Part shown: positions 1 through 52,372 of the stretch, in pieces
Layout of the letters: each line of letters begins with the position of its first letter
Position numbering within the stretch: position 1 is the stretch's first letter
NCBI GenBank assembly: GCA_044229845.1
Contig: JBGASG010000003.1
Span: forward strand, 352,001 to 416,000
Source of the DNA: Candidatus Obscuribacteraceae bacterium
GTDB taxonomy: Bacteria; Cyanobacteriota; Vampirovibrionia; Obscuribacterales; Obscuribacteraceae
Reading direction: 5' to 3'
Length of the DNA: 64,000 bases
Position numbers and translations under genes: made by a program
Notes under the pieces: generated by a model
The model's database searches: none
Told to the model about the DNA's origin: nothing
What the model saw: the letters and a program-made list of their open reading frames with translations, nothing else

Positions 1-647
1 GAACGGCTGCCGATCGGGAAGTCGTGCTGCACAGCCGTCGTCACTGAGTTGATATTGGTGTTGAGCTTGATGTTGTGGGCCAGCGAATCTCGCAGGAAGA
101 AATAGTTGACGTAAGCCCGAGTACGCGGCGTGAAAGTCCATCCCGCAGTAACGTTGGGCAAGATACGGAAGACCGTATCTTCGCGGCTGGCGAGAGCCAA
201 AATGCTCGACACTTGATTTTTCTGGAATGCCGAAAGGCGGAAAAAGTCATTGCCCTGCGGCAAGGTGGTGATCAAGTTGCGCTTGGTAGGAAACTGGAAA
301 ACGTTGGTTTCGACACGCACCGATGTTTCGGCGGTGCCGGTCAGATAGAGCCGGGAAGGCAGAGCTTGCAACAATCGCAACTGGAGATTTTCTCCGACCG
401 TCATACGATTGCCGAGCGACTGAGCCGGCAAAGTATCGGTCGGCAAGATGGTCGTGCCAGTGGGCGCCTGCACGTTGGGCAGGTCGACACGGGGAGCGGG
501 AGTTGTAGTTGTAGGAGGGGCGATCTGCGCCACCGCCGGCGAAGCCACAAAACCGGCCAGCAAAATGCCGATAGTGCTTGCGCGCTTCACCACGTCATCT
601 GTCAGCCGAGGGGCTATTTTTCTCGCCGATGCCACCGGGTTACCCAT
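1..647 (-). CDS. Exported hypothetical protein, partial (runs off the window start); possible outer-membrane beta-barrel
   Basis: Not in the ORF track. Manual translation from ATG at 647: MGNPVASARKIAPRLTDDVVKRASTIGILLAGFVASPAVAQ (signal-peptide-like, AVA-Q), a Pro/Thr linker, then strand-like segments (RILPNVTAGWTFTPRTRAYVNYFF). The frame stays open to position 1. Start codon uncertain. Confidence 0.7.
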   Translation of the reverse strand, partial: MGNPVASARKIAPRLTDDVVKRASTIGILLAGFVASPAVAQIAPPTTTTPAPRVDLPNVQAPTGTTILPTDTLPAQSLGNRMTVGENLQLRLLQALPSRLYLTGTAETSVRVETNVFQFPTKRNLITTLPQGNDFFRLSAFQKNQVSSILALASREDTVFRILPNVTAGWTFTPRTRAYVNYFFLRDSLAHNIKLNTNINSVTTAVQHDFPIGSR

Positions 648-757
648 TAGTAAGCGATCGCTCCCAGCAGCCCTCGCTAGTGCTCTTTGGAACACAGCCG
701 TGAACTACACTGGGAGCAATCCTACATGTCGTCCTGTGTAGAAGCAAGACGTTATCA

Positions 758-930
758 TTGACCTCCTCACTTTCTTGAGAGGAAAGTGATCCCGACTCGG
801 AGTCCGACATGAACGCCGACACGGTGGGTTCCTGCTTCATCGAGGTTGCCAGAATTTCTGGTCTTAAGTCCTCTCCACAGGCTCATCGGGCGAGCCCCGC
901 CCTGCAGTCCCTGCGTGGTTCAGCAGGGAC
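758..930 (-). ncRNA. Orphan IS200/IS605 TnpB-type omegaRNA (reRNA)/right-end scaffold
   Basis: Minus strand reads AGGGCGGGGCTCGCCCGATGAGCCTGTGGAGAGG...AAGACCAGAAATTCTGGCAACCTCGATGAAGCAGGAACCC...GGGATCACTTTCCTCTCAAGAAAGTGAGGAGGTCAA. It translates as the typical TnpB tail RAGLAR*ACGE..RP....SMKQEP. A subterminal hairpin and terminal TCAA are present; there is no tnpB ORF upstream. Confidence 0.75.
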
Positions 931-1195
931 CATACATACGTATCTCATAGTTGAGTTTCCGTTTGCAACTCCAGTTTCTAACTGCCGACTCCGCCGGCGG
1001 TGCTCTCTCCTCCATCGCGCCCCTGAACTCAATGGTCAAGATGTAGCTGAGAGAATCCGATGACTGATATCGTTCGAATAGCCATCTGTGTTTGAGAAAG
1101 CGGCGAATCAGGTATGTACTTGACGGGGTTTCCAGATTCCCGTAACGTAGCGGGCAAGACATTTTCAGGAATTCCGCCGTCGGCCGCAGCGGCGT

Positions 1196-1204
1196 TGTTA
1201 CAAT
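1196..1204 (+). promoter_or_regulatory. Extended -10 promoter element (TGnTACAAT) upstream of the response regulator
   Basis: TGTTACAAT about 50 bp upstream of the start at 1257. Confidence 0.5.
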
Positions 1205-1256
1205 AGAGCGGTGACTACCAAAGACGAAGTTCGTCTAAATCTTATCCGGAGCAACT

Positions 1257-2108
1257 TTGGAAACTATTCCGACCGGCAGTCAGCCTCGACCGACGGTATT
1301 CCGTCCGAAAACAGTCATCTGCGAAAGACATGAACTGATTCGCTTTGGCTTGAAGCGGGTGGTATCGGAGGTGCTCGAGATTGTCGGCGAAGCTTCCGAC
1401 GGCATGGCTGCCACCGAGGTGATTCGCCGGTTGCAACCGCATTTCGTCATACTCGACGTCGACCTGGATATTCTCAACGGCGTTGAAGTAGCGCGCCGGG
1501 TGTCGCAAGAATTTCCCAACAGCAACATCCTCTGCCTGACTGATTCTTATCACGCCACCAAATATCACAACCAGCTCATCCGCTCTGGTGTGCGCGGCTT
1601 CTGCCTGAAGAGTTCAGGACCGCGCACGCTGTTCGAAGCCATCGAACAGGTAACTCGCGGATTGCCTTATTGCGACCCGAAGATCACACAGTTGGTCAAG
1701 CAAACGCCATCGAATGCGATGCCCAACACCAACCTCACGGATCGCGAAATCGAAGTCTTGATTCGTCTGGATTTGCGCAACAAAGAAATCGCCGAAGAAC
1801 TGGACATGAAGCTGCGCACGGTGGAGAAACATATCGAGTGCATCCTGGCAAAACTGAAGGTTCCCACTCGCACGGCGGCTGCACTTAAAGCTGTGCAGTT
1901 GGGTTATGTGCTCTTGCCGAAGATGCCCGGCCGCGACCCGGTGACCGGCGTCACTTACGAGCAGACTGTCGCCGAACTGCAGGCCGAACTGGCCATCGCC
2001 AACGAGCACTTGAAGGCACTTTTGAAGCAAAACGAACTCCTGAAAGACGCGTTGCACGATCGGATGCGGCAGCAGCAGAACAAACCGCCGGACAATCCGT
2101 CGACATAG
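1257..2108 (+). CDS. NarL/LuxR-family response regulator with C-terminal coiled-coil extension
   Basis: REC domain (IVGEASDG, VILDVDL, LT, CLKS), LuxR HTH (LTDREIEVL...NKEIAEEL....RTVEKH...ILAKL), then a heptad-rich tail. Confidence 0.9.
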   Translation: METIPTGSQPRPTVFRPKTVICERHELIRFGLKRVVSEVLEIVGEASDGMAATEVIRRLQPHFVILDVDLDILNGVEVARRVSQEFPNSNILCLTDSYHATKYHNQLIRSGVRGFCLKSSGPRTLFEAIEQVTRGLPYCDPKITQLVKQTPSNAMPNTNLTDREIEVLIRLDLRNKEIAEELDMKLRTVEKHIECILAKLKVPTRTAAALKAVQLGYVLLPKMPGRDPVTGVTYEQTVAELQAELAIANEHLKALLKQNELLKDALHDRMRQQQNKPPDNPST

Positions 2109-2187
2109 CCTCAAGGCAGACACGCGAAAAACATCAGTCCTTCGCATGCGTGCGCCCGTGCGGCTCGACTGGCGTCTCGAATAGAAG

Positions 2188-2196
2188 TGCTATGCT
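2188..2196 (+). promoter_or_regulatory. Extended -10 element (TGnTATGCT)
   Basis: TGCTATGCT 30 bp upstream of the CDS at 2227; the identical 9-mer occurs at 28885-28893 upstream of another gene. Confidence 0.45.
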
Positions 2197-2226
2197 TTAG
2201 GTGGTTAAGCCTGTAAGGTTTTTGCG

Positions 2227-3237
2227 GTGAAGATCGCGCATATCGCGGCGGTACTGATTTCTGTCTCTTTTGCCACGTGTCCCAAGCTGGCCATCGGCAA
2301 AGAGATGTCTTCCAACGGGCATTTTCAGATCGCCGGCAAAACCAGTCGCACCATTCAGAAATACACCGGACTGACTTGGGTCGGAAACCATCTGGTTAGC
2401 GCCGGAGCCGGTCTGGCACTGAAGTCCAGGCTCGGCGGCAAAGTAAAAGTAAAAGCACGCAGCTACAGTTTCACCGACATGCTGCAAGGCAAATTCGAAA
2501 CTGTCGAAGTGCACATGAAAAACTCCAAAGTCAAAGGAATTCCGATGGGTACGGTGATCGCCCGCACAGACCAGCCTGTCAAGGTTCGGTACTTCAAAAA
2601 GAATGGTCAGCGGGCCGGGGTTGAGACACCAGTTCTGGTATCACTGTCCGGGTCAATAAATGAAGAGCAAGTGACGCGCGCTCTCAACTCGAAAGAGATA
2701 TCGCAAGTCCTGAGAATTCTCAAACTGGACCTACCTGGACTTGGCGAACAGCAGCTCCAGATCTTAGATCCGGAGGTTTTGCTCGAAAAAGATCAGATTA
2801 CTTTAAAAACGGTGATGATCACAAAAGGGGCCGCGAAAGAAACCGGCGTGCCACTCACCATAGTGGCGCATCCGGTGCTGGAAGGGGATCGCCTGATTGT
2901 CCTTAAAGAGACGAAAATCGACTCCAAGATCATCGAAAAGCCAGAGCTGTTCGCCCAGTTCGCTGAGGAACTGCTCAACCCGCTCTTCGATTTCGGCCGA
3001 TTAGACAGGCAAAGCCATGCTTTGCGAGTGCAGAAATTGAATTTGTCCGACAAAGAAGTCTCATTTGATGGTAAATTGTTGCTGGCACCGAAGCCCAAAG
3101 CAGCGGCGCCGTCCCAGGCGGAAGCCAAAACAGGAAACGCCCAGGCAGGAAACAGCAATCCGCTACCACCGGCAAACAAAGCAGAAGAGACTAAACCTGT
3201 CGACGGCGGCAAGCACGTTTCCGAAAACAAAAACTAG
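2227..3237 (+). CDS. Exported LmeA/DUF2993-like protein
   Basis: Signal peptide; pattern KVKVKARSYSFTDMLQGKFETVEV...INEEQVTRALNS...LLNPLFDF resembles DUF2993; low-complexity tail. Confidence 0.6.
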   Translation: MKIAHIAAVLISVSFATCPKLAIGKEMSSNGHFQIAGKTSRTIQKYTGLTWVGNHLVSAGAGLALKSRLGGKVKVKARSYSFTDMLQGKFETVEVHMKNSKVKGIPMGTVIARTDQPVKVRYFKKNGQRAGVETPVLVSLSGSINEEQVTRALNSKEISQVLRILKLDLPGLGEQQLQILDPEVLLEKDQITLKTVMITKGAAKETGVPLTIVAHPVLEGDRLIVLKETKIDSKIIEKPELFAQFAEELLNPLFDFGRLDRQSHALRVQKLNLSDKEVSFDGKLLLAPKPKAAAPSQAEAKTGNAQAGNSNPLPPANKAEETKPVDGGKHVSENKN

Positions 3238-3251
3238 AAAGTCTGGTTTCT

Positions 3252-3776
3252 ATGCAAAAATCGATGAGTCTGGCTCTGGCAGGGATTCTCTGTGCTTTCC
3301 TGCCTCTCTGCGGCTGTACCCAGCGAACGATTCTCACAGGTAACTCCAGCACCGCAGACAGTATCGCTCCAGAAAAGAACCAGGTGATCGTATGGTTTGT
3401 GCGTACAACCGAGGGCGGTACCAGGTTTGTGGCGGTCAAACGCCCCCAGCGCGGCAACGACAGGCTGGCTTCCGCCCTGCAGGAACTGCTTTCCGGTCCC
3501 AGCGACAAAGAATCCCTGCAAGGGCTGGGCAGTGAAATTCCACGCGGCACCATTTTGCTGGGCGTCAAACATAAGAAAGGCAATCTCGAGGTTGATCTTT
3601 CGCGCCGCTTCGCATCAGGTGGTGGCAGCGATACGATTGAGGCAAGGCTTTCGCAGTTGCAGCGGACCGTAGAATCGAATGACGAAAAAGGCGACGTTTA
3701 TCTGAATGTCGAAGGACAGCGACTGACGATGACGATGGGCGAGGGAATTGAAGTGCCGCAACCGATAAATCGCTGA
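3252..3776 (+). CDS. GerMN-domain lipoprotein
   Basis: Lipobox-like [14 protein letters not shown]...[12 protein letters not shown]...[13 protein letters not shown]...RLSQLQRT. Confidence 0.85.
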
Positions 3777-3859
3777 ATTTCGCGTGTTCGCGACCGATCA
3801 TCTCGTCCCAGCCCTGAATTGGCAGTTCTTAATAGATCCGGAAGGGGACGCTCCCCATC

Positions 3860-3868
3860 TGGTAAGAT
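3860..3868 (+). promoter_or_regulatory. Extended -10 element upstream of rpmE
   Basis: TGGTAAGAT about 70 bp upstream of the rpmE ATG. Confidence 0.45.
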
Positions 3869-3939
3869 GTCGTTTTGGTCGCGTTTTTAAGCGACCGACG
3901 TACTCGGAAATCAAAGACAGTCATCAAAGAAGGATTGCC

Positions 3940-4164
3940 ATGAAAGAAGGCATTCACCCCAAGTATCAAGAAGTCATCGCCACTTGCGTCTGCGGAAACA
4001 AAGTAGAGCTCGGCTCGACCAAACCGCAAATCAAGGTGGAAATTTGCTCGAACTGCCACCCGTATTACACCGGTCAACAGAAGATTGTTGACACCGAAGG
4101 TCGGGTTGACCGCTTTGTCAAGCGCTACAGCAAGAAGAAAGACGAAGCCGCTGCTAAGAGCTAG
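3940..4164 (+). CDS. rpmE: 50S ribosomal protein L31 (zinc-binding type)
   Basis: [14 protein letters not shown]...[26 protein letters not shown]; start reassigned to ATG 3940 after AAGGA. Confidence 0.98.
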
Positions 4165-4172
4165 GTGCCACT

Positions 4173-4910
4173 TTGCAATCTGCCAGAGAGAAACTAATCC
4201 TGGCGGTCGATACTTCATCATTGGAAGAAGCTCGTGCGATCGTCGACGAGCTTCATGATTCTGTAGGTATTTTTAAGGTCGGACTGCAGCTGCTGTCCAA
4301 TCACGGACCGAAGATTATCGAAGAACTGGTGTCCGGCGGACTGAAAGTCTTCTGCGACGGCAAGTTTCACGACATCCCCAACACCGTCGAGCAGGCAGCC
4401 GAAGGCATCGCCGGTCACGGCGCTTTCATGTTTACGGTCATGACCTGCGGCGGGAAAAAGATGCTGGAAGGCGCGGTCAAAGGCGCGACACGCGGCTCCG
4501 CGCGCGGCGGACACGCAGCGCCGATTGTGCTAGGAGTAACTGTTCTTACCAGCCTCAGCCAGAAAGTCGTTAATGAGGAGCTGAAAGTAGACCTGCCGGT
4601 CGACGAGTACGTGCTCCATCTGGCTGAACTGGCGCGCGATTCGGGGGTCACAGGCATCGTGGCGTCCGCAGAAGAAGTGGCTCGCTTGCGCCACGCATTG
4701 GGCAAGGAGATGGTGCTGGTGACACCGGGCGTCCGACCGTCGTGGGCGGGAGCAGACGACCAGGCACGCATTGTGACCCCGGCTGATGCCATGAAACGTG
4801 GTGCCGACTACATTGTAGTCGGGCGCCCAATCACGGCTTCGGACAATCGCAAAGCAGCCGCCCAGCGCATTGTGGACGAGATGGAATCAGCCCTGGCGCA
4901 TACGGGTTGA
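4173..4910 (+). CDS. pyrF: Orotidine-5'-phosphate decarboxylase
   Basis: LILAVD, FKVG, DGKFHDIPNTV, VTVLTS, VTPGVRP, DQAR, IVVGRPIT. Confidence 0.97.
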   Translation: MQSAREKLILAVDTSSLEEARAIVDELHDSVGIFKVGLQLLSNHGPKIIEELVSGGLKVFCDGKFHDIPNTVEQAAEGIAGHGAFMFTVMTCGGKKMLEGAVKGATRGSARGGHAAPIVLGVTVLTSLSQKVVNEELKVDLPVDEYVLHLAELARDSGVTGIVASAEEVARLRHALGKEMVLVTPGVRPSWAGADDQARIVTPADAMKRGADYIVVGRPITASDNRKAAAQRIVDEMESALAHTG

Positions 4911-4917
4911 ACCGGAG

Positions 4918-6009
4918 CTAAACAGGTTCAGGCGTTGTTGTTTGCGGGCGAATGTCGTCGTCCGTTTCGATGCTGCCTCCGGGCGGCGGAGCATCAGGAA
5001 GCGCATCAGGAGTGGTATCTATAGAAGTGATGCCGCTCGGCGGCTGTTTGGTCGGCACCACCGGCAGTTTATCTTGAGTGACCTCATTGCTGGCAGCACT
5101 GGCGCGAGCAGTATCACCCCTGGTGGCAGGCATGCGACGTCCGAACATAGACAGGAAGGAATGAAACGGCGTATCTTTGGCTCCAGAAGCCTCAACCGTG
5201 CCATGGTAATAGACATAGGAAAGCGGATCAGCCAGATCCTCGGCGGTATTGTATTTGACCAGCATGCCCCGGTTGGCGGCCGATATGGCACCAGTTTCTT
5301 CCGACACCACCACGCACAGTCCGTCGTAGACCTCGGAAAGTCCGATGGCCGCCCGGTGGCGCGTGCCATAGCGTTGACTGAGTTTTGGGGCTTCAGTCAT
5401 CGGCAAGATTACTCCGGCTGCCACGATTTTGTTTTGCCTGATGATCACGGCACCATCATGCAAAGGCGATGTCGGCAGGAAAATCGCCACCAGCAAAGGC
5501 GCCGAAACATCAGCATTGATGGTCGTCCCCGGGCTCAGGTAATCGCGCTCACCTTCCGGTGGTTCAATCACGATCAGGGCACCGGTTTTGGTGCGCGCCA
5601 ACTCACGCACCGCTGAGATGATCTGTTTGATGACAGCGGCACCACGCTCCTTATCGCTTTCACCCAGCGAAAGATCTACTCGGAATGCCGATTTCCCGAG
5701 ATAGCCCAGACCGCGCCGAATCTCTGGTTGAAACACGATCAGCAAGGCCAAAACAAAAACTGGAATCAACTGCTGGAGAACGGCCGTGATCAAAGTCAAA
5801 CCTGTCACCCATGACAGGATGCAGATGATGAAGAGTACCATGACGCCTTTGACGAGACGCTCAGCCTGTGTGCCTTTGATGCGCGACCAGATCCACATGG
5901 CCGCGTAGCCGATGATAATCAGCTCGAACGTTACTTTGATCAGTCCAACCCAATCAATAACGCGCGCGGCGCCCCAGAATCCGTTGAATTCGAGCCAGAC
6001 TTTGTCCAC
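4918..6009 (-). CDS. cdaA: Membrane-bound diadenylate cyclase (DisA_N domain) with Pro/Thr-rich tail
   Basis: Three N-terminal TM helices, FQPEIRRGL, PLHDGAVII, YGTRHRAAIGLSE, VVSEETG; probable start GTG 6009 (ORF open to 6057). Confidence 0.95.
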   Translation of the reverse strand: MDKVWLEFNGFWGAARVIDWVGLIKVTFELIIIGYAAMWIWSRIKGTQAERLVKGVMVLFIICILSWVTGLTLITAVLQQLIPVFVLALLIVFQPEIRRGLGYLGKSAFRVDLSLGESDKERGAAVIKQIISAVRELARTKTGALIVIEPPEGERDYLSPGTTINADVSAPLLVAIFLPTSPLHDGAVIIRQNKIVAAGVILPMTEAPKLSQRYGTRHRAAIGLSEVYDGLCVVVSEETGAISAANRGMLVKYNTAEDLADPLSYVYYHGTVEASGAKDTPFHSFLSMFGRRMPATRGDTARASAASNEVTQDKLPVVPTKQPPSGITSIDTTPDALPDAPPPGGSIETDDDIRPQTTTPEPV

Positions 6010-49890: not shown

Positions 49891-51259
49891 CCGGGATTCC
49901 CGCAACCGCCGGAGACTCGTCGTCAGTCAGCCAGCCTACGGCCTTTCCAAACAGATCGTAAGGTTTGGCAGAGGTGATTTCGACTTTGACGATTTCAGCA
50001 AACGCGCGATCATCGAGCGAGTCGGCGCTGATATACACCTGGTTGTCGATTTGTGGCGCGTCCCATTGAGTGCGTCCGTAGAATAGTTTTTTCGCTTCGT
50101 CGAAGCCTTCAACCAACACGTCCACAGTCTGTCCAACCAGACGCAGATTGCGCTTGGAAGATATCTCGTGTTGCGCTTCCATAATTTTGCGGCGGCGCTC
50201 TTTTTTCACGCGTTCGGGAATCTGATCTTCCATGTTGCCGCTTGGTACTTCGGTTTGTCGCGAATAAGTAAAGACACCGAGGCGGTCGAATTCATGTTCA
50301 CGAATGAAGTTCAAAAGGTGCTCGAACTGCTCGTCCGTTTCTCCAGGGAAACCAACGATGAAGGTGGAGCGCAGTGCGGACTCCGGAAGAATCTCGCGTA
50401 TCAGCTTAACGGCCTTCTCAGGCTTCTGTGGTCTAGCCATGGAGGAAAGCACCTCGGGATGGCTGTGCTGCAAGGGAATATCGACGTACTTAACGACTTT
50501 CGGCAGGCGTGCCATTGCCCGGAGGAGCTGTTCGTTGGTCTCGGTCGGATAGAAGTACATGATGCGTATCCAATCGAGTCCCTCGATTTCGTGGAGCGCC
50601 TCGAGCAGTTCCGGCAGCGCCATGCGCCCGTATATATCCAGACCATAGTAGGTCGTGTCTTGCGAGATCAGGATAATCTCTTTAGTGCCTGATGCCACCA
50701 GAACGCGCGCCTCTTTGACCAGAGACTCGATGGTGCGTGAACGGAACTTGCCGCGCAGCATCGGAATGATGCAGAACGAACAGGTGTGATCGCAGCCCTC
50801 TGCTACTTTCAGGTAAGCAGATGCACCGATGCCGGTCTGCATGCGAGGCTGGACCTCATCAATATGGTCGTTCGGCGTTGCCGAGACTTGCACCACGCGC
50901 AGTGACGAATCTTCCGCAACGGCTTTCACCACATCGACAATCTTATGAATATCTCCGGTGCCTACTACGGCACGAGCCTCCGGCAGCTCCTTGAGCAGTT
51001 CCTCGCGGAAATGCTGCGCAAGGCAGCCGGCGATAATCAATTCTTTGCCATCGCAAGCCAGTTCAACCAGGTTGCGCACCGACTCGCGGCGGGCATCCTC
51101 GATGAACGAACAAGTGTTGACGAGGCACATCTCAGCTTCGTCATTATCGAAAGTGATTGTAAATCCGGCTTCCCGCAGAAGTCCGAGCATCACTTCCGTA
51201 TCAGTTTGATTCTTCGGGCATCCCAATGAAACGATGCCAATCTTTGGACTGTGCAACAT
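49874..51259 (-). CDS. rimO: Ribosomal protein S12 methylthiotransferase
   Basis: SLGCPKN, VNTCSFI, AEGCDHTCSFCIIP, FIVGFPGET, C-terminal TRAM domain. Confidence 0.96.
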   Translation of the reverse strand: MLHSPKIGIVSLGCPKNQTDTEVMLGLLREAGFTITFDNDEAEMCLVNTCSFIEDARRESVRNLVELACDGKELIIAGCLAQHFREELLKELPEARAVVGTGDIHKIVDVVKAVAEDSSLRVVQVSATPNDHIDEVQPRMQTGIGASAYLKVAEGCDHTCSFCIIPMLRGKFRSRTIESLVKEARVLVASGTKEIILISQDTTYYGLDIYGRMALPELLEALHEIEGLDWIRIMYFYPTETNEQLLRAMARLPKVVKYVDIPLQHSHPEVLSSMARPQKPEKAVKLIREILPESALRSTFIVGFPGETDEQFEHLLNFIREHEFDRLGVFTYSRQTEVPSGNMEDQIPERVKKERRRKIMEAQHEISSKRNLRLVGQTVDVLVEGFDEAKKLFYGRTQWDAPQIDNQVYISADSLDDRAFAEIVKVEITSAKPYDLFGKAVGWLTDDESPAVAGIPVIVSG

Positions 51260-51295
51260 ATTTTTCGACTGTGACTGACTGAGACTCTGACCGGT

Positions 51296-52372
51296 TTAGT
51301 CGGTATCAAGTCGACCGTCGTAGCGATAAGGCACATCGATAGATCTGCTACCGCCGCCGCCACCACCGCCGTCAATAGACCTGGTCCCTTCGCCGATAGA
51401 GCGATAAGTTGGGCTACTGCGCTTGGTCGAACTTGCCGTCTTGCGAACTTTCGGTGCGCTGATGGTGGTCGTTGAGGCTGTCTTCGTCGGAGTAGCCGCA
51501 GCATCTGCCGGAGTAGTGGGAGATGCACCGGTGGCGACGAAGGCGCGCTCTGTGACCTTACCAGCTGCGCCGAGGGTTTCTATTTTACCCTTATAGTCCA
51601 CTGACAAGCTGCCGCCGTTGCCGGCCCGAATTCTGAAGCCCTGCGAGTCCGAAAAGTCACGCCTGTCGCCCTGTTCGAGATATCCAGTGTATAGACTTTC
51701 GCCCGAAGAGACTGCCTTAACTTCTACCCATACATGCTGGTTGGCCGATACGGTGATTTTGCCGCCATCGGGTTCTGGTGCGGCTTGCGTGGTGGTGCCG
51801 GTAGCGGGCATCGTCTGTCCCGGTCCGCCACTAGCCGGATTGTTGGCAGCAACCCGTTGCGCAGAATCTCTTAATGAAAGAACCGCGGGATCTTGCTGAT
51901 TGTTGTTGTTGCTCTGTCCCATCAGAAACGTGAACAGACATAGCACCATGACCACCAGAACCGTATTGAACACCCAGGTCTTGTAGTTAGGCGGTGCCGT
52001 ATTGATGCGGGCCTTGTTCAGATATTCGGGATGGACGTAGACCGGTTGGTTCTGCGGATAACGACCATTGCCGTTGTTGCGACCGTTGCTCTTACCGTTG
52101 CTGCTGCCCTCCTGCGAGGCAACCCGCTTGAACTCATCGGATAGCACAGAGCCATCCAAACCTACAGTCTCTGCATATCGCTTGATAAAGCCGGCCACAT
52201 AAACGACTTCCGGCAATCCTTCGGTATTGCCTTCATCGAGCGCCTGCAAGTGATTGATTGGAATTTTCGTGCGCTCGCAGACTTGCCGCAGAGACAGCCC
52301 ACGCGATTCCCGCGCAGATTTCAGTTTCTGTCCAATGGCAGCAAAGGTAGTAAATGATTCGGAGTTTGTCAT
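51296..52372 (-). CDS. rodZ: RodZ-like protein (HTH, TM, DUF4115)
   Basis: GQKLKSARE..GLSL...L.ALDEG...LP..VY..GFIKRYA; TM; WVEV...IRAGNGG. Confidence 0.88.
   Translation of the reverse strand: MTNSESFTTFAAIGQKLKSARESRGLSLRQVCERTKIPINHLQALDEGNTEGLPEVVYVAGFIKRYAETVGLDGSVLSDEFKRVASQEGSSNGKSNGRNNGNGRYPQNQPVYVHPEYLNKARINTAPPNYKTWVFNTVLVVMVLCLFTFLMGQSNNNNQQDPAVLSLRDSAQRVAANNPASGGPGQTMPATGTTTQAAPEPDGGKITVSANQHVWVEVKAVSSGESLYTGYLEQGDRRDFSDSQGFRIRAGNGGSLSVDYKGKIETLGAAGKVTERAFVATGASPTTPADAAATPTKTASTTTISAPKVRKTASSTKRSSPTYRSIGEGTRSIDGGGGGGGSRSIDVPYRYDGRLDTD

Follow-up and report, generated by a model that had tools for sequence, protein, structure and literature searches.

Mobile elements that carry an omegaRNA, the guide RNA of TnpB, and rely on a TnpB made elsewhere are already in print, both as palindrome-associated transposable elements (PATEs) with omegaRNAs and as standalone omegaRNAs. 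In main-text passages of the Meers et al. 2023 preprint (PMC10055086), PATEs of Geobacillus stearothermophilus 'often encode omegaRNAs', which need TnpB in trans, and a PATE with IStron ends appears in a figure legend of the Zedaveinyte et al. preprint (10.1101/2023.11.20.567912). According to the passage of Altae-Tran et al. (PNAS 2023, PMC10691335) that cites their own 2021 work, standalone, mobilised omegaRNAs work in trans. Here we describe a 277-nt unit at positions 1034 to 758, on the minus strand, of a 64,000-nt stretch of DNA from a Candidatus Obscuribacteraceae bacterium (assembly GCA_044229845.1, contig JBGASG010000003.1, positions 352,001 to 416,000; the window). The unit holds no gene for TnpA, TnpB or any other protein, and we consider it very probable that it is a non-autonomous IS200/IS605 derivative, resembling PATEs and miniature inverted-repeat transposable elements (MITEs), which carries an omegaRNA and follows the mechanism of that family.

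Like the PATEs of those passages, the unit has no open reading frame (ORF) of its own, its right end and what remains of its left end resemble those of resident IS605-family elements, a short target motif adjoins it, the omegaRNA is kept, and TnpA and TnpB would come from elsewhere. It differs from the PATEs as described there in its hosts, which are metagenome-assembled genomes (MAGs) of Obscuribacterales, in its RAGATH-18-like RNA core, and in belonging to a single multi-genus lineage with a conserved promoter-like motif and a 5′ hairpin of its own. With the standalone omegaRNAs, as that passage presents them, it shares the lack of an effector or transposase gene and the presence of effector loci elsewhere in the genome; activity in trans was experimental there and is deduced here from comparison of sequences. 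The guide RNA (right-end RNA, reRNA) of the IS607 TnpB of ISFba1, as laid out in passages of Ren et al. (Cell Res 2024, PMC11061315), has the same order of 5′ flank, core with CCUGUGGAG...CGAUGAAGCAGGAA, 3′ flank and guide. The unit departs from it in a score below the Rfam cut-off and in a terminal hairpin of 24 nt against 42 nt in the model. It is also of the Y1/HUH type, with hairpin ends, a TGAC target and no duplication, and not of the serine-recombinase IS607 type described in those passages, and its transposon-adjacent motif (TAM) is TTGAC, not AGGAG/GAGGG. Finally, the ISDra2 TnpB-omegaRNA complex (PDB 8bf8/8exa/8h1j) is similar in that its TnpB aligns over the full length with a 403-amino-acid TnpB of the same genome as the window, and in that it is of IS605 type with a Y1 TnpA; its omegaRNA, however, is encoded together with tnpB, whereas the RNA of the window stands without one.

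The evidence for mobility comes from a second genome of the same genus (G001), which we compared with the genome containing the window (G000, a 5.16-Mb assembly of 22 contigs that is 88% complete, in which the window is C18:352001-416000). A 2.2-kb query over the locus matches G001 as two abutting pieces, C1:49589-50751 (93% identity) and 50752-51501 (90%), and window 1034-758 is the exact stretch absent between C1:50751 and 50752. With a slash for the junction, the empty site of G001 reads CTTGAC/TGATAA..., that is CTTGAC/TGATAATG... (in an extended reading CTTGAC/TGATAATGTATTGCG...), and the filled site of the window reads CTTGAC/277 nt/TGATAACG... (extended, .../TGATAACGTCTTGCTTC...). The insertion is precise, lies 3′ of TTGAC and has no target duplication, which argues for transposition of the IS200/IS605 type, since these are the hallmarks of such Y1/HUH elements in passages of Meers et al. 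A preliminary description, made from the letters of the window alone, had drawn the feature as a lone scaffold at 738..930. The element in fact reaches 5′ to 1034, and the scaffold makes up the 3′ two-thirds of a complete unit.

Five copies of the element in G000 are tnpB-less ("orphan"), and for three of them G001 has a clean empty site, namely for the copy in the window (277 nt), for that on contig C7 (294 nt, after TTTGAC) and for that on C3 (220 nt, after CCTGAC); all three lie directly 3′ of TGAC. The C19 copy is present in G001 too, and the C13 copy has no clean empty site, its region measuring 384 nt in G000 versus 154 nt in G001. Homology between paralogues (window against C7 and C19) covers approximately window 1007-755. 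Presence and absence between the sister genomes shows past mobility only. The joined, empty-site form was not seen among the contigs of DNA run X14, a result of little weight because contigs drop rare variants.

The 3′ part of the unit was identified as a TnpB-type guide-RNA scaffold in several ways. A cmscan of window 1-6000 against Rfam (E<=10) returned one match, to RAGATH-18 (RF03064) at 881-829 on the minus strand, covering model positions 1-71 in full with 30.8 bits and E 0.0077, and no other Rfam family. Both consensus strands, 5′ CCUGUGGAG and 3′ CGAUGAAGCAGGAA, are matched in the alignment, with posterior symbols of an asterisk or 7-9. The score lies below the gathering score of 44.9, as do all five RAGATH-18 matches in G000 (24.2-35.9 bits); hence the core is RAGATH-18-like and not an Rfam member by threshold. 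In passages of Ren et al. RAGATH-18 is the core of a TnpB reRNA comprising a 37-nt 5′ flank, a 73-nt core and a 64-nt 3′ flank before the guide, and the window has a corresponding layout of 49, 53 and 71 nt before the host flank. Taken together, the match and the layout support the identification as a TnpB-type guide-RNA scaffold made in the preliminary description, which had proposed a covariance-model search as a check. The sub-threshold matches in G000 are confined to the scaffolds of a 397-amino-acid type of tnpB and of the orphans, that is to elements which by their hairpin ends and their target, TGAC or TTAC, are of Y1/IS605 type; the same passages of Ren et al. have RAGATH-18 co-occurring only with IS607 TnpB.

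The comparison with tnpB genes leads to the same identification. The 3′ 150 nt of the element align with tnpB 3′ ends of G000, each copy ending GGAGGAnGTCAA, and the scaffold could be aligned with four tnpB-linked copies in G000 and with 13 distinct tnpB-linked scaffolds overall. An ending like GGAGGAnGTCAA followed by divergence is found in 10/10 G000 copies and at 27 of the 28 distinct related places; the ten aligned G000 copies end GGAGGA[G/A/C]GTCAA and diverge immediately afterwards. This common ending places the boundary between scaffold and guide between 758 and 757, in agreement with the guide slot first proposed at 757-738. A frame within the scaffold that had been pointed out earlier, RAGLAR(stop)ACGEDLRP...SMKQEP, resembles ...AAGLAVIACGGDIRPEAIPAASLKQEPTVSAV(stop) of the 397-amino-acid tnpB of G000 and is a relic of the TnpB C-terminus.

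A BLAST search of G000 with the region gave 10 further matches, two of about 250 nt with 81% and 77-78% identity, and provided the copy count and comparison of flanks that had been suggested, the flanks diverging after GTCAA. The five orphan copies, with no tnpB within 3 kb upstream, are those of the window, C7:43444, C19:309452, C13:73439 and C3:318827. Four copies lie at tnpB 3′ ends, one at C14:121342 (the 397-amino-acid tnpB) and three in near-identical elements (C14:174139, C14:113400 and C8:29233), and of a further copy, on C1, just a truncated part is left. When 107 genomes of the order were searched at the DNA level, nine of them, G000 included and representing 4 of 38 genera, gave matches. 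We analysed the 27 loci with a findable right-end terminus (L058, without a terminus, L066, at the same place as L057, and L070, whose core was not found, were dropped), and a TnpB match within 1500 nt upstream was present at 15 and absent at 12. Orphan copies were found in six of the Obscuribacterales genomes searched and on eight metagenome contigs, where a strict pattern search gave loci of the same layout in 8/8 cases, some identical to loci of the genome set. PyrF, a housekeeping protein encoded in the window, has 98% identity to its counterpart in a MAG labelled Candidatus Obscuribacterales.

All 12 orphan loci share the motif TTGC-spacer-[T/G]ATAC[A/G]TAYGTATGG. Their left end, TGAC/C-AATGGTGCGGCAAG, hairpin, GGAAGGATAGCACCGCCGGCGGAG, shares homology with that of the tnpB-bearing elements. 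The left-end hairpin sequence is kept at nine of the 12, among them C7, C3 and the members from other genera, and lacks its 5′ arm in the window and in C19/G001:C9; the right-end hairpin and terminus of the window are present and homologous to those of the autonomous copies. TGAC stands at the aligned left boundary of seven orphan loci and at a shifted place in two, with TTAC in one and two unclear. In tnpB-linked copies, the stretch matching the orphan 5′ hairpin encodes RuvC-III (ADFNAARNIL), and homology to the orphans starts just after it, at ...GGCGGGGCTCGCC.... In an unrooted tree of a short, 150-nt alignment the 10 distinct orphan scaffolds lie on one side of a branch (support 95/94) and the 13 tnpB-linked scaffolds on the other, from which we infer that the short form arose once and then spread.

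Two copies in G000 are reduced further. The C3 copy (G000:C3:318608-318827; L076:1353-1572) has its whole RAGATH-18-like core deleted between CAGGGC and GGAACCC and the corresponding site of G001 is nevertheless cleanly empty; the core may have been lost before this copy moved or after it. The remnant at C1:561996 (L016), which comes from an element of the 403-amino-acid type, retains approximately the last 95 nt of the scaffold, and its counterpart on G001:C23 (L075) has TnpB matches upstream. At a distance of 197 nt downstream, GTTGAC is followed by a look-alike of the flank, or guide, of this remnant, with 3 of 16 positions mismatched.

Conservation of the fold was assessed on 23 distinct scaffolds (10 orphan and 13 tnpB-linked, with identical rows merged and the C3 copy, L076, excluded for its internal deletion). 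RNAalifold gave 29 consensus pairs, of which 12 show changes in both partners. The 29 are paired in 96.7% of cells versus 87.6% after shuffling (0/500 shuffles reach the observed value) and 39-61% in slid controls. The 10 orphan scaffolds alone gave 45 pairs, 94.4% paired versus 89.6% shuffled (0/500), of which 12 are compensated; it counts against both sets of figures that the structures were derived from the same alignments used for counting and that relatedness of the sequences inflates the counts. Compensation is seen in the 5′ hairpin (helix 1 of the orphan alignment, with 8 pairs, 3 altered on both sides), at pair 28-43 of the GGGCG hairpin (CG in 13 rows, GC in 9), in the inner stem of the core (GC/AU/CG at columns 61-91 and 62-90) and in helix 4 of alignment A2 (8 pairs, 4 compensatory, 98.9% of cells paired). 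The window copy retains 28 of the 29 consensus pairs, which bears out the intact fold first described. Its right-end hairpin, which is TCCCCTTC/GAAGGGGA in other copies, has two pairs altered relative to its paralogues, each on both sides (CCCCTTC/GAAGGGG to CACTTTC/GAAAGTG), so that the differences are compensated. Within the orphans, the compensated pairs include the 5′ hairpin and internal helices away from the transposon tip. To our knowledge only the subterminal hairpins matter for TnpA, and the pairing pattern of these other helices therefore suggests selection on the RNA.

The proteins that the unit would need are encoded elsewhere in G000. As the preliminary description had stated, the locus itself holds neither tnpB nor tnpA; four places of G000 match Pfam TnpB models above cut-off, all of them outside the window. 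Three IS605-type elements of about 1758 nt, which differ at no more than six internal positions, each carry a 138-amino-acid TnpA (Pfam Y1_Tnp, 4e-43), on the opposite strand, and a 403-amino-acid TnpB (OrfB_IS605, Cas12f1-like TNB, HTH). Their left-end flanks are TTGAC, TTGAC and GTGAC and their ends, both left and right, closely resemble the orphan ends; given such ends and target motif, an element of this kind could supply TnpA and TnpB in trans. The target of ISDra2, TTGAT, is similar to the TTGAC of the window. The 403-amino-acid TnpB aligns end to end with the solved ISDra2 TnpB (8bf8/8exa) with E 3.5e-51. Its GIDMG, VIEDL and ADLNAARNI lie opposite GVDVG, GTEHL and RDENAALNI of ISDra2, and both CxxC pairs are kept. 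The aligned D/E/D columns presumably form the RuvC catalytic triad. Two TnpB families are thus present in G000, one with the RuvC-aligned D/E/D at three loci and one, of 397 amino acids, frameshifted. The scaffold of the 397-amino-acid tnpB is the closest to that of the window (82% identity, same long inner hairpin). From these alignments it is possible that the 403-amino-acid TnpB serves the orphan scaffolds in trans, and to this extent the earlier proposal of a guide acting in trans stands.

In another genus (g45), locus L059 (G106:C243) encodes a TnpB with 99.5% protein identity to the 403-amino-acid TnpB of G000 and has a scaffold tail identical to that of the C8 and C14 copies, pointing to horizontal transfer in very recent times or to an error in binning.

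The guide is predicted to be the flank at 757-738, placed as in TnpB omegaRNAs and of an assumed length; the same flank directly follows TTGAC in G001. A search of G000 for a second target of the guide, with a 16-nt seed and at most 3 mismatches, gave 35 places, exact only at the element's own flank, and none of the others is preceded by TGAC. The best match other than to itself, at C1:755382 with 2 mismatches and preceded by TTGAT, is taken as chance.

At the empty sites of G001 (L036 near 2663; L081 near 2162) the targets differ from the guides of G000 within the first 10 bases after TTGAC, by 2/10 at the window site (TGATAATGTA versus TGATAACGTC) and by 3/10 at the C7 site. The G001 alleles at these two sites might be safe from cleavage by these guides.

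Upstream of the scaffold, a -35-like TTGC is found in all 12 orphan loci and is followed, after a variable spacer, by a -10-like hexamer, TATAC[A/G] in 10 and GATACG in two (the window and one G109 copy), and an invariant GTATGG. The same motif is present in 8/8 metagenome copies, and on the strength of this conservation TTGC...GATACG is a putative promoter. Together with the bases that follow it, the -10-like hexamer also forms a near-perfect palindrome (window 930-944), ATACATATGTAT in most copies and GATACGTATGTATGG in the window, which is kept across genera and in the metagenome copies; a role as operator or processing site, instead of or besides one as promoter element, is conceivable.

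Sequencing runs containing the locus come from sludge and bioreactor metagenomes, together with six metatranscriptomes with partial word shares. A 306-nt metatranscriptome contig (X16) has a depth of 8.35 versus 2.5-3.7 on the adjoining response-regulator gene. It belongs to the C19-type paralogue, for which six substitutions and a three-base insertion are diagnostic, and its loose ends match the C19 copy. As the data are unstranded and carry-over of DNA is possible, the contig hints no more than weakly at the presence of a sister copy in the RNA. Among the Logan contigs of RNA libraries X15, X16 and X19, a search with window 728-1137 found only this C19-type contig of X16, and such contigs cannot show absence, strand or ends.

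On the reading that we favour, that of a mobile non-autonomous element with an omegaRNA, TnpA from other elements would excise such units and insert them 3′ of TGAC. The element's own promoter would then give an RNA running through the scaffold into the host flank, and TnpB acting in trans would bind this RNA and, guided by the flank at 757-738, cut the vacated and rejoined site (TTGAC followed by the flank). Recombination would restore the element, amounting to homing, or retention, by a gene-less hitch-hiker; this scheme is modelled on the homing and retention of IS605 TnpB in passages of Meers et al. For the family as a whole we tentatively go further, to a proposal that we think possible though not quite probable, namely that the orphans form a self-sustaining lineage of mobile guide-RNA genes in which tnpB has been replaced by a promoter and a protective 5′ hairpin, and which persists across Obscuribacterales genera by borrowing from unrelated resident IS605 elements the TnpA with which it moves and the TnpB with which it homes. 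By turning to a different TnpB, such a lineage may outlive its original partner, whose gene is now a pseudogene in G000 and G001 alike.

Several observations weigh against the favoured reading, some of them on the window copy itself. At its left end only the loop and the 3′ arm of the hairpin remain and the 5′ arm is missing; the DNA fold of this end, at -7.1 kcal/mol, is no better than that of shuffled sequence (z -0.30), versus -17.5 kcal/mol and z -2.31 for the long hairpin of C7. The loss makes excision of the window copy by TnpA unlikely, and as long as the copy stays in place its guide would meet no emptied target in that cell. The -10-like hexamer of the window is GATACG and not TATAC[A/G], and a scan of 600-1300 for sigma-70 promoter and terminator consensus found 0 promoters and 0 terminators. 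The 397-amino-acid tnpB of G000 (C14:120052-121347, L010) has a 1-nt deletion at about codon 12, its copies in G001 (L048 and L049) have a frameshift and a stop in one case and a frameshift in the other, and its target motif is TTAC, not TGAC, with TTAC as the left-end flank at both G001 loci. The scaffold of the 403-amino-acid TnpB matches that of the window at only 74% identity over the last 90 nt and has a shorter inner hairpin, the orphans forming a separate clade; moreover, at 88% completeness further TnpB genes may be unassembled. Probably, then, the window copy has recently been immobilised with its guide-RNA part intact in appearance, and that it still yields an RNA loaded into TnpB is plausible, at somewhat below an even chance.

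The same points lend weight to the strongest rival, to which we would assign about a third of our belief, namely that the window copy is a young fossil of the same descent that is now inert, its fold intact only through recent insertion. The lost hairpin arm, the G at the start of the -10-like hexamer and the pseudogene state of the closest tnpB family all fit this, as does the age of the insertion, which postdates the split from G001 (flanks 90-93% identical) and has left little time for decay. Set against it are the 28 of 29 retained pairs; the two pairs of the right-end hairpin changed on both sides, which argue for selection on pairing in recent ancestry; the occurrence of GATACG in one other member of the lineage; and the three intact TnpB genes of G000.

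A role as 5′ leader or regulatory RNA for the gene of an exported protein that lies downstream (ORF 695-3 and beyond), as had also been proposed, is very unlikely. The element is oriented toward this ORF, with 62 nt between its end and the earliest start possible for the ORF, and an outward-reading promoter could incidentally drive it. However, the divergent gene pair exists in G001 although the element is absent there, at each of the four other G000 orphan copies the closest gene downstream runs in the convergent direction, the guide has no second TGAC-flanked target, and the conserved features of the family are transposon ends and an omegaRNA.

A domesticated host guide RNA, for instance one used by a nuclease-dead TldR-like protein to repress a gene, is largely refuted and extremely improbable. 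The intact scaffold with no effector gene alongside would suit it, and TldR systems offer a precedent, but the orthologous site in G001 is empty, the guide is the insertion flank with no other TGAC-flanked match of the 16-nt seed at up to 3 mismatches, and the copies are polymorphic and lie in unrelated contexts. Furthermore, no TldR-like nuclease-dead TnpB was found among the four TnpB-family loci of G000, three of which have D/E/D and one of which is frameshifted, and the TldR-like partner suggested earlier thus falls away. Equally hard to credit is a scar formed in place, the earlier null explanation, by loss of tnpB from a full-length IS605 or IS1341-type element at this locus: the scaffold does bear the relic TnpB frame, but the G001 site is cleanly empty and the short form of left end, promoter and scaffold recurs as one lineage at 12 of the 27 loci, in six genomes and on 8 metagenome contigs, from which we conclude that a single ancient deletion of tnpB was followed by the spread of the short form. 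Of the checks of synteny and covariation proposed at the outset, the one showed the element to be absent at the G001 site and the other gave covariation.

Judged against the main-text passages of the sources cited above, three features may be new: the conservation of the orphan lineage over several genera, complete with a promoter-like motif and 5′ hairpin of its own; the association of a RAGATH-18-like core with Y1-type (IS605) elements; and the decay of the closest tnpB at the same time as gene-less copies multiply. The locus offers a clean, well-bounded case of a mobile element pared down to its guide RNA, with its TAM defined, its guide predicted and empty sites known for three copies, in the little-studied Obscuribacterales, non-photosynthetic relatives of cyanobacteria, from sludge. 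That an old gene-less lineage has conserved a promoter-like motif suggests that production of the RNA, and not only the transposon ends, has been under selection. The locus bears on whether one TnpB can serve diverged scaffolds in trans and on the origin of multi-guide systems such as CRISPR arrays; if the proposal is right, the orphan lineage would be a hyperparasite of RNA-guided transposons, a natural case in which several guides, each mobile on its own, share one nuclease. In annotations these elements ought to carry the label mini-IS/omegaRNA and not appear as blank intergenic DNA.

Table 1. Features of the 277-nt element and its flanks (positions in the window)
Feature	Position	Strand	Basis or remark
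Target/TAM pentanucleotide TTGAC	1035..1039	-	Host flank directly 5′ of the element; empty site in G001
Whole non-autonomous IS200/IS605 PATE-like element (assignment very probable)	758..1034	-	277 nt, no ORF of its own; precise absence in G001
Left-end remnant: CATTGAG, loop TTCA, 3′ arm GGGGCGCG, then GCACCGCCGGCGGAGTCGGC	984..1034	-	Alignment with orphan copies and IS605-type left ends
Promoter-like motif: TTGCAA (968-963), 18-nt spacer, GATACG (944-939), then TATGTATGG	939..968	-	Conservation
5′ hairpin GTCCCTGC/GCAGGGAC	907..930	-	Specific to the orphan lineage; helix 1 of the orphan alignment
Hairpin GGGCG-GGGCT-CGCCC	888..902	-	Homology to tnpB 3′ ends starts here; helix 1 of A2
RAGATH-18-like core	829..881	-	Sub-threshold match to Rfam RF03064
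Nested stem CCTG-TGGA-GAGG...CCTC-GATGAAG-CAGG	831-881	-	Part of the core
Stem-loop CCG..GGCGUUC-loop-GGACUCC..CGG	792..824	-	Helix 4 of A2
Right-end subterminal hairpin TCACTTTC/GAAAGTGA	767..789	-	Helix 6 of A2; DNA fold
Right-end terminus GGAGGTCAA	758..766	-	Shared ending of the copies
Predicted 20-nt guide TGATAACGTCTTGCTTCTAC	738..757	-	Host flank 3′ of the right end; length assumed
Scaffold overall	758-902	-	Followed by flank/guide 738-757

All the motifs that the preliminary description had listed on the minus strand were found, its placing of the 5′ hairpin at 908-930 being one base off the 930-907 observed. A 66-amino-acid ORF on the minus strand (window 640-840), in all likelihood no true gene, starts within the element with the relic TnpB C-terminal MKQEPTVSA and crosses the right end to run on in the flank. 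The core itself is composed of a stem CCUGU/GCAGG, an internal loop GGA/GAUGAA, a stem GAGG/CCUC and a terminal hairpin CCAGA-AAU-UCUGG, and the internal loop is a putative kink-turn.

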